Shown here: one piece after another, positions 30,848 to 31,243 of the stretch
Layout: each line of letters begins with the position of its first letter
How positions within the stretch are numbered: the first letter of the stretch is position 1
Translations under genes and position numbers: made by a program
The notes under the pieces: generated by a model
Told to the model about the DNA's origin: nothing
Seen by the model: the letters and a program-made list of their open reading frames with translations, nothing else
The model's database searches: none
Virus record (IMG/VR): IMGVR_UViG_3300027969_000058
Location: 1 to 64,000 of that record
Direction: 5' to 3' (one strand)
DNA length: 64,000 nt
DNA from: a virus

Positions 30848-30880
30848 AACAAAAAACCCCAGGGTTTTTAATCCTGGGGT
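30848..30880 (-). terminator. Attenuator intrinsic terminator
   Basis: ACCCCAGG-9nt-CCTGGGGT followed by TTTTTGTT. Confidence 0.85.
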
Positions 30881-30906
30881 CCTTGGAGTGTTGTTGTGTA
30901 TTTTTA

Positions 30907-31050
30907 TTACACTACGGTCCTCCGGGACCCCTGGCAAATCTCTGGTGTGCGATCATAACTTGACAGTCCATTAATCGATAACCAAGAGCAGGCTATTACA
31001 CCTGCCTGTTTGGGCATCGTATTAAACTGATGTCTGTTAAATGATTGCAT
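30907..31050 (-). CDS. Putative attenuator leader peptide (47 aa, all 20 amino acids)
   Basis: MQSFNRHQFNTMPKQAGVIACSWLSINGLSSYDRTPEICQGSRRTVV; 3' codons form the antiterminator strand. Confidence 0.65.
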   Translation of the reverse strand: MQSFNRHQFNTMPKQAGVIACSWLSINGLSSYDRTPEICQGSRRTVV

Positions 31051-31115
31051 TTTGTTTCTCTTAAATCTCTTTAAAAATTTTGTTAGTAAGCACCATTGCC
31101 TGCTAACTTGTATCT

Positions 31116-31243
31116 ATTATAGCGTCTCTCAACGCCCCTGTCAACATGTTTTGGATATCTTTTTTGTTGTATTTTTACAACAGCCTCGAACACCTTGCTT
31201 GCTAACTTGTTTCTATTGTACAGTTATTTATGTCTCTTGTCAA
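31116..31243 (-). promoter_or_regulatory. Tandem sigma70 promoters heading the tRNA operon
   Basis: TTGACA-17-TACAAT (31215-31243) and TTGACA-17-TATAAT (31116-31144). Confidence 0.85.

Follow-up and report, generated by a model that had tools for sequence, protein, structure and literature searches.

Attenuation by a translated upstream open reading frame (uORF) is described for whiB7, where efficient translation of the uORF leads to termination and slowed translation leads to readthrough (PMC10274678). The composition of this uORF sets which starvation is sensed, and once its only Trp codon is removed, the system reacts less to a limitation of Trp (PMC10274678). Thus, single codons can suffice in such a design. 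The whiB7 system responds to many deficiencies of amino acids and tRNA synthetases and to ribosome-targeting drugs (PMC10274678). Its uORF is 25 to 40% alanine, and several amino acids are missing from it in many species, completeness not being maintained (PMC10274678). We analyzed the first 64 kb (hereafter, the window) of the 114.7-kb IMG/VR record IMGVR_UViG_3300027969_000058, where we find a short leader open reading frame (ORF), an antiterminator and an intrinsic terminator placed ahead of a phage tRNA array. Judged by analogy, the whiB7 / wblC uORF attenuator is the closest system in logic to this module. We consider it rather likely that the module is a ribosome-mediated transcription attenuator gating the phage tRNA array. 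The transcription of the tRNAs would then probably be tuned to the ribosomal decoding of every amino-acid class.

In both the module and whiB7, a uORF near the promoter precedes a Rho-independent terminator, with which an antiterminator competes. Unlike the Ala-rich whiB7 uORF, the leader peptides of the module hold about 2.7 Ala residues each (median length 47), and 89% of them are complete for the 20 amino acids. Whereas whiB7 gates a drug-resistance transcription factor in a cellular genome, the module would gate tRNAs in lytic giant phages. There is no homology of sequence or structure between the two, and the genes downstream of the module are a 51-amino-acid protein and tRNAs, with no WhiB-like regulator. 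Finally, whiB7 is an actinobacterial system, whereas the phage carrying the module has a transfer-messenger RNA (tmRNA) of the betaproteobacterial type.

The enterobacterial leaders trpL, hisL, pheL and leuL and the multivalent thrL and ilvL are more distant in logic; the last two each respond to more than a single amino acid. With the trpL/hisL-type leaders, the module has in common a short leader ORF and exclusive antiterminator and terminator helices, between which the position of the ribosome decides. However, those leaders have codon runs for the end product and precede biosynthetic operons, while the module has no such run and would regulate tRNAs. In addition, a pairing further upstream lets them terminate by default when the leader is not translated, whereas we found no conserved upstream partner for the 5′ arm (arm A) of the module's antiterminator. 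In pyrBI and pyrE, a ribosome close to the polymerase blocks the terminator and causes readthrough, and the signal is the UTP-dependent pausing of the polymerase. There, as in the module, the outcome is set by the distance between ribosome and polymerase while a leader ORF (about 44 codons) is translated, but the ribosome of the module should disrupt the antiterminator and not the terminator. T-boxes bind one specific uncharged tRNA directly, without translation. They resemble the module as leader RNAs that link tRNA charging to the choice between terminator and antiterminator, but searching the transcribed strand of 30400-31400 against Rfam (E ≤ 10), we obtained no match, either to T-boxes or to the leader families. 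To our knowledge, cells regulate tRNA genes through their promoters (growth-rate and stringent control) and do not use leader peptides for this purpose, and phage tRNA arrays are usually regarded as constitutive cargo. Searching the full-text literature, we found no description of an all-amino-acid leader or of attenuation-controlled phage tRNA arrays.

The antiterminator, the terminator and the polarity of the switch

Scanning IMG/VR with two patterns, we found the module in about 150 viral contigs. The pattern of the terminator plus the 3′ arm of the antiterminator (arm C) is present in 111 viral contigs, and that of the ORF core in 83, of which about 40 had not been found before. An exact 21-mer from the leader ORF gave 8 viral contigs in addition to the relatives located through a neighbouring gene. 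These relatives were used to analyze the helices, the amino-acid content and the reading frame of the leader.

A reading made from the sequence alone (the sequence-only reading) had proposed that the last codons of the leader pair with bases overlapping the 5′ arm of the terminator. The proposed pairs, 30931..30925 with 30882..30876 and 30923..30920 with 30888..30885, are indeed those of the minimum-free-energy (MFE) fold of the window, at −25 kcal/mol. When the 82 distinct 3′ regions were folded without constraint, arm A paired with arm C in all 82, with the same three tiers: a basal helix made of the two arms, a middle helix and an apical hairpin, for which there are 35 distinct stems. The interiors of the native hairpins gave z = −3.8 against dinucleotide shuffles. 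The stop codon begins between −4 and +3 nt from the start of the apical loop in 71 of the 82, and in the window (30909..30907) it is at the edge of this loop. It is TAA in 98 of 106 copies.

We then checked whether both helices covary. On sequence-only MAFFT alignments, RNAalifold recovered the terminator but missed the antiterminator, and the latter was assessed instead by per-sequence folds and a targeted alignment. The covariation alignment included copies found via the ORF motif, so that the search did not fix the helices. The basal antiterminator helix was paired in 94.8% of the cells, with compensatory change in 4 of its 7 pairs, and the terminator in 99.7% of the cells, with compensatory change in 5 of 7 pairs (alignment A5). 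The covariation scores of both helices were reached in none of 500 shuffles, and slid controls collapsed. At the base shared by the two helices that covaries, a C to U change is accompanied by a G to A change in arm A and also by a G to A change in the 3′ arm of the terminator; the pair counts at this shared column were 20 G-C / 14 A-U and 25 C-G / 11 U-A. Such a double covariation is what two mutually exclusive, functional helices would predict. The energy gap between the antiterminator and terminator states is 1 to 4 kcal/mol. Covariation of the hairpins, like a conserved ORF length and weak selection on the peptide, had been predicted for relatives by the sequence-only reading, and all three are observed.

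Arm A ends 14 to 18 nt before the stop codon and arm C starts 22 to 26 nt after it; the ORF of the window stops 24 nt before arm C. Given this spacing, a terminating ribosome would fill the middle and apical tiers and hold the two arms apart. We propose that strong host-type promoters would start a transcript of which the short leader ORF is the first element. The last 8 to 10 codons or so would make the 5′ half of the three-tier hairpin, with the stop codon at its apical loop, and the 3′ arm of this hairpin, overlapping the 5′ arm of the terminator by four bases, would act as the antiterminator. The antiterminator would be transcribed before the 3′ arm of the terminator and is predicted to be far more stable than the local alternatives; thus, an RNA without a ribosome near the end of the ORF should be read through. 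A ribosome keeping pace with the polymerase would melt and occupy the hairpin and let the terminator form, and the polymerase would not reach the small protein gene, the tRNAs or the conserved hairpin RNA between them. If the ribosome were delayed at any earlier codon, the antiterminator would fold first and the polymerase would read on. The output of readthrough would be the small basic protein gene, the hairpin with its AACGAGG loop and a near-complete replacement set of tRNAs. The sequence-only reading had expected a stall at any codon to have this effect. We retain this for the earlier codons but not for the last 8 to 10 or so, which lie inside the antiterminator, where a stall should favour termination.

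The same attenuator might also work with the opposite polarity, in a stringent-like manner, tRNA transcription continuing only as long as codons for all 20 amino acids can be read and ceasing on starvation. We consider this unlikely. Without a ribosome, a local hairpin would then hold arm A and the terminator would form, and a ribosome at the stop codon would free arm A for arm C. The competing local hairpin, already noticed by the sequence-only reading, does exist in the window (−8.2 kcal/mol), and for 75 of 106 copies, folding predicts a local hairpin in which 4 nt or more of arm A are paired; by sequestering arm A, it could make termination the default. Both arms are also just outside the expected footprint of a terminating ribosome, and bacteria are well known to shut down stable-RNA synthesis when amino acids run short (stringent control). 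On the other hand, the stability of the full antiterminator is roughly threefold that of the local hairpin (−25 vs −8 kcal/mol). Opposite polarity would leave the covarying middle and apical helices around the stop codon without a purpose; these are exactly the tiers that a terminating ribosome removes. Pairing of the arms around a bound ribosome would be sterically doubtful, and the whiB7 precedent works the other way.

Amino-acid content of the leader

The counts that the sequence-only reading gave for the leader ORF of the window are exact: 47 codons, 38 of them distinct, including 5 codons for Ser, 4 for Arg, 3 for Gly and 3 for Thr, and both ATA and ATT. No codon is used more than three times. 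The codon diversity stood up to comparison with the genome codon usage, the probability of at least 38 distinct codons being 3e-4 (0.006 for random-nucleotide ORFs), and the probability of 20 amino-acid types is about 0.02. These values concern a single ORF noticed after the fact, so the decisive evidence has to come from the relatives.

Among 112 distinct leader peptides (35 to 52 amino acids, median 47), 100 contain all 20 types, 10 contain 19 and two contain 18; even a 35-residue copy holds all 20. A profile search of 5.8 billion predicted proteins yielded 52 further leaders, 41 of them complete. For random peptides of 42 to 47 residues, the chance of 20 types is 1 to 2% with the genome composition, 2 to 4% with the family composition and 5 to 12% with a uniform composition. 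Completeness is also seen after clustering, in 15 of 18 clusters at ≤50% identity and in 9 of 11 at ≤40%. Shuffling residues within alignment columns of the representatives at ≤50% identity, which preserves the conservation of each site and breaks the complementarity within a peptide, we obtained on average 2.2 complete peptides of 18 (maximum 7 in 2000 shuffles), as compared with 14 to 15 observed. Trp, His, Cys and Tyr are each present as a single copy in 77 to 92% of the peptides, and rare residues are relocated when they are lost from one site. The neighbouring protein of 49 to 65 amino acids, used as a control, has 16.3 types on average and never 20. The codons lying at least 9 nt upstream of arm A alone supply all 20 amino acids in 68 of 115 copies, against 0.58 expected.

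Looking at synonymous codons, we noticed quite a different picture. The synonymous-codon diversity is ordinary for the given peptide (P 0.1-0.7 vs uniform usage), and 83% of the leader codons are cognate to phage tRNAs, which is no enrichment over the 81.5% of the phage genes. The proposal that the leader samples many isoacceptors therefore fails, and the wider one that it surveys nearly the whole tRNA pool holds for amino-acid completeness (100 of 112) but not at the level of isoacceptors. As judged from the composition of the copies, selection maintains all 20 amino acids in the leader, with the signal at the amino-acid level only. The putative sensor is pan-amino-acid, not pan-tRNA. With all 20 amino acids kept, any shortage of a charged tRNA class or any general slowing of translation would raise tRNA transcription.

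A general sensor of translation capacity or coupling (ribosome availability, antibiotics, host shut-off) would need the ORF only to be translated. It would agree with an architecture that detects any delay and no particular codon and with the unremarkable synonymous choice and cognacy to phage tRNAs, and whiB7 likewise responds to ribosome-targeting drugs. The full amino-acid set would then have been selected otherwise, for instance by avoiding repeated codons for a uniform elongation speed. However, such a sensor does not explain why the rare single-copy residues (Trp, His, Cys and Tyr) are retained and are relocated after loss, and even a uniform composition would give all 20 in only the small fraction of peptides stated above. 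We regard it as distinctly unlikely.

The leader as a reading frame

The reading frame is retained across about 150 homologous loci. In 109 loci, we find an ATG-initiated ORF of 35 to 52 codons that ends 17 to 38 nt (mostly 21 to 28 nt) before arm C. Insertions and deletions within the ORF are multiples of three, whereas the flanks have those of 1 to 5 nt. In 28 of 82 distinct copies (e.g. L055, L058, L066 and L094), the −10 box ends 6 to 10 nt before the ATG, and the mRNA would thus be leaderless, the ORF beginning at the 5′ end of the transcript. The remaining copies have a 5′ untranslated region (UTR) of 25 to 101 nt (mostly 41 to 65 nt) with a 5′ hairpin. Metagenome gene callers independently predicted 55 such leader proteins. 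Frame retention, in-frame indels and leaderless promoter placement together argue for translation.

The peptide itself behaves differently. Comparing the leaders pairwise, we found differences of 0.24/0.21/0.22 at the three codon positions, with no third-position excess, and a ratio of synonymous to non-synonymous codon differences of 121:792. The core of the ORF is invariant even at wobble positions, which suggests a constraint at the RNA level. No family for the leader peptide was found in Pfam or PHROGs. Selection would thus act on translation and not on the peptide sequence, which is the signature expected of a regulatory leader ORF.

Could the ORF instead encode a small functional protein, followed by an ordinary leaky terminator that sets the gene ratio, with the full amino-acid set as a by-product? 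The peptides do form a recognizable motif family, and gene callers annotate the ORF as a hypothetical protein. However, the codon differences just described, the wobble-invariant core and the lack of a Pfam or PHROG family speak against it, and it leaves unexplained the three-way covariation of the helices, the fixed position of the stop codon and the 89% completeness in diverged copies. We find this explanation quite improbable. Least credible of all is an incidental ORF within the gene of a structured, non-coding small RNA that has a promoter and a terminator of its own. The 265-nt transcript does fold at −81 kcal/mol (z = −5.6 vs shuffles), and the nearby tmRNA has a like promoter-RNA-terminator layout. 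However, about 150 diverged copies keep the frame open, their indels being in frame, the promoter placement is of the leaderless type in a third of the copies, amino-acid completeness would be meaningless for an untranslated RNA and Rfam gives no match. On the frame and composition evidence, we reject a purely non-coding RNA as the sole explanation.

Apart from the local hairpin and the position of the arms at the margin of the ribosome footprint, some further points weigh against a ribosome-mediated attenuator with readthrough on delay. In 34% of the complete copies, the twentieth amino acid comes only from codons near or inside arm A, where a stall would not be expected to cause readthrough. 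In the copies with a UTR, the Shine-Dalgarno-like element is weak or distant from the ATG, and a nucleotide-level constraint on the ORF core explains part of the peptide conservation. Each of the two scans fixes part of the sequence, which makes the invariance of the terminator uninformative in the first set and that of the ORF core in the second. The module is absent from the deposited phage collection, and no cultured phage or host carries it. While the anatomy and its conservation, the frame, the selection for completeness and the covariation are observed directly, we infer the translation of the ORF, the polarity of the switch and the physiological signal from them, and this is likewise counted against the attenuator. 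Weighing these points together with the evidence above, we keep the attenuator as the preferred explanation.

Genomic setting and meaning of the module

Every feature of the module is on the minus strand. The coordinates are collected in Table 1.

Table 1. Features of the leader module and its surroundings in the window
Feature	Position	Strand	Remarks
Promoter P1, TTGACA-17-TACAAT	31243..31215	-	Consensus scan, 11/12 matches
Perfect 6-4-6 palindrome between the promoters	31166..31181	-	Invariant in the first close relatives with the 5′ UTR type (alignment A2)
Promoter P2, perfect TTGACA-17-TATAAT	31144..31116	-	Consensus scan, 12/12; expected start near 31109
5′ UTR, 59 nt	31051..31109	-	Predicted fold: 5′-terminal hairpin; purine-rich, weak Shine-Dalgarno-like stretch
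Leader ORF	31050..30907	-	47 codons + TAA; 20 amino-acid types; 38 distinct codons
Possible hairpin in the ORF	30940..30988	-	Trp codon region pairs with Pro-Glu codon region; RNAalifold on alignment A3
Arm A, 5′ arm of the basal antiterminator helix	30925..30931	-	Inside codons 40-42; pairs with 30882..30876 in the MFE fold
Middle helix and apical hairpin	30885..30923	-	30923..30920 with 30888..30885; 30912..30908 with 30900..30896
Arm C, 3′ arm of the antiterminator	30876..30882	-	Its last four bases also begin the terminator stem
Intrinsic terminator	30879..30851	-	7-bp G+C stem (30879..30873 with 30863..30857), 9-nt loop, six T (30856..30851)
Conserved small basic helical protein gene, 51 amino acids	30835..30680	-	First gene reached by readthrough
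Conserved hairpin, 5-bp stem, 7-nt AACGAGG loop	30638..30654	-	Between the small gene and the first tRNA
Downstream tRNA array	17151..30444	-	ARAGORN; 32 tRNA genes interspersed with ORFs, all 20 amino acids
Two-piece (permuted) tmRNA	34089-34570	-	Rfam tmRNA_permuted 96.4 bits, beta_tmRNA 96.3 bits
tRNA-Arg(CCG), complete	34446..34373	-	Nested between the two tmRNA pieces; upstream of the leader module
Perfect sigma-70 promoter of the tmRNA	34556..34528	-	
Terminator of the tmRNA	34133..34114	-	

Performing a consensus scan, we recovered both sigma-70 promoters named by the sequence-only reading. At least one consensus-like promoter is located within 350 nt upstream in 102 of 103 loci; 62 loci have two and 14 have three. 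A common box follows each promoter of the window (2 matches in the window vs 0.01 expected). The palindrome between the promoters is a candidate operator to which a dimeric regulator could bind, or else it could form a hairpin in the RNA started at P1. Like it, the perfect 6-4-6 palindromes that the relatives L005-L052 have 5′ of their first promoter contain an AAAA centre. The hairpin of the 5′ UTR is retained in the relatives despite their different sequences. Within the ORF, the hairpin at 30940..30988 is a possible candidate for a pause or spacer structure, with modest support: in alignment A4, 83.7% of the cells pair, as compared with 32 to 47% with a slid partner, and there is almost no compensatory change. 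The consensus terminator scan overlooked the terminator of the module, as its loop limit was 8 and the actual loop is 9. Using the consensus scan, we detected no promoter between the terminator and the downstream genes.

The sequence-only reading had placed the tRNA array immediately after the terminator hairpin. The terminator is there, but the array does not follow directly: the first tRNA begins 404 nt downstream of the U tract, and the 51-amino-acid ORF and the conserved hairpin intervene. The 51-amino-acid protein is 78% identical in relatives, with codon-position differences of 0.35/0.29/0.44, i.e. a normal third-position excess, and has no match in Pfam or PHROG. An ORF of 49 to 65 amino acids follows the terminator in 62 of 107 loci, and its product could belong to the regulatory module. 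We find the AACGAGG-loop hairpin in 85 of 107 loci, where 15 or more different stem sequences maintain the complementarity. It could be a site of processing or of protein binding or a stable small RNA, and it appears to be surrounded by an outer helix (flanks about 30620-30690).

Across the loci, a same-strand tRNA lies 215 to 1185 nt downstream in 90 of the 90 that have at least 1200 nt of downstream DNA. Counting all tRNAs, we found 1555 downstream, all on the same strand, vs 80 upstream; where the fetched part of an array contains 25 or more tRNAs, these cover 18 to 20 amino acids. The genes upstream of the module vary among loci. One contig, L185 (IMGVR_UViG_3300008110_005229, ~7871-7887), has lost the DNA after the ORF core, and its leader ORF is extended to 52 codons; DNA matching the small downstream gene follows the leader, without antiterminator or terminator. 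L185 may be a natural mutant with constitutive readthrough.

In the window, the ketoacyl-synthase-like (KAS) gene ends at 31277, before the module promoters, on the same strand. The KAS-like protein as a single query retrieved no related locus among the viral contigs, and related loci were located with a KAS alignment instead. The closest KAS-like homologues are 95% and 89% identical. Metagenome contigs with a 63 to 70% identical KAS-like protein have the whole module, and the DNA identity of the module (69 to 79%) is about that of the flanking KAS at the amino-acid level (63 to 70%), which is a rough comparison of different measures. In contigs with 52 to 61% KAS identity, desaturase genes come directly after KAS, and neither the module nor tRNAs are present. 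In the distant relatives L002-L004 and L009-L017, two to six tandem fatty-acid desaturase paralogues flank the KAS-like gene, and in the clade of the window, the entire tRNA module is inserted between KAS and one desaturase. Scanning the species-representative bacterial and archaeal genome collection with the terminator pattern, we obtained no match.

The completeness of the record is estimated at 33% by CheckV, so the record is a fragment of a giant phage; its source is an uncultured giant phage of lake water. The window has a G+C content of 40% and encodes ribonucleotide reductase, Hsp70, the KAS-like protein and a fatty-acid desaturase. The Hsp70/DnaK gene (Pfam HSP70, E = 4e-250) is at 46776-48695 and that of the large subunit of class Ia ribonucleotide reductase at 59624-61981, both on the minus strand; the best match of this reductase among deposited phages is 60% identical (Xanthomonas phages). 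By ARAGORN and Rfam together, the window has a two-piece tmRNA and 33 tRNA genes, among which all 20 amino acids are represented. The tmRNA is of the betaproteobacterial type, a hint that the host is a betaproteobacterium. At the gathering score, Rfam matched only tRNAs and the tmRNA in the whole window. None of the deposited phage genomes is close to the window or matches the 1.4 kb around the module, and the 116-nt module core gave only chance matches among them. Near-identical DNA is contained in freshwater metagenome runs. In metatranscriptomes, assembled contigs from four freshwater runs cover the leader, which is weak support for expression since these contigs show neither transcript ends nor RNA origin. 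The KAS gene (31262-31400) is uncovered and the depth is lower 3′ of the terminator in one run, neither of which is interpretable, and the contig ends at 30848 and 31230 are the limits of between-strain conservation and are not readable as RNA ends.

What would such a module do for the phage? We put forward, tentatively and with less confidence than we have in the attenuator itself, that it is a closed feedback loop for the phage tRNA supply and at the same time a counter-defence device. The leader would be a test translation that senses the depletion of any host tRNA or charged class, whether the cause is starvation, cleavage by anticodon nucleases of the host or a decay of host tRNAs that the phage itself induces, and the response would be the transcription of the complete phage-encoded replacement set. 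If true, this would be the first known translation-based sensor controlling tRNA genes, and multivalent attenuation would have its limiting case in a leader from which selection lets no amino acid be lost. With its length of about 300 nt, the module could also be turned into a compact reporter of translation stress in general. For giant phages, an all-amino-acid leader would show that they monitor the decoding capacity of their host and adjust their own tRNA supply, which bears on why phages carry tRNAs and on their arms race with tRNA-cleaving defences.

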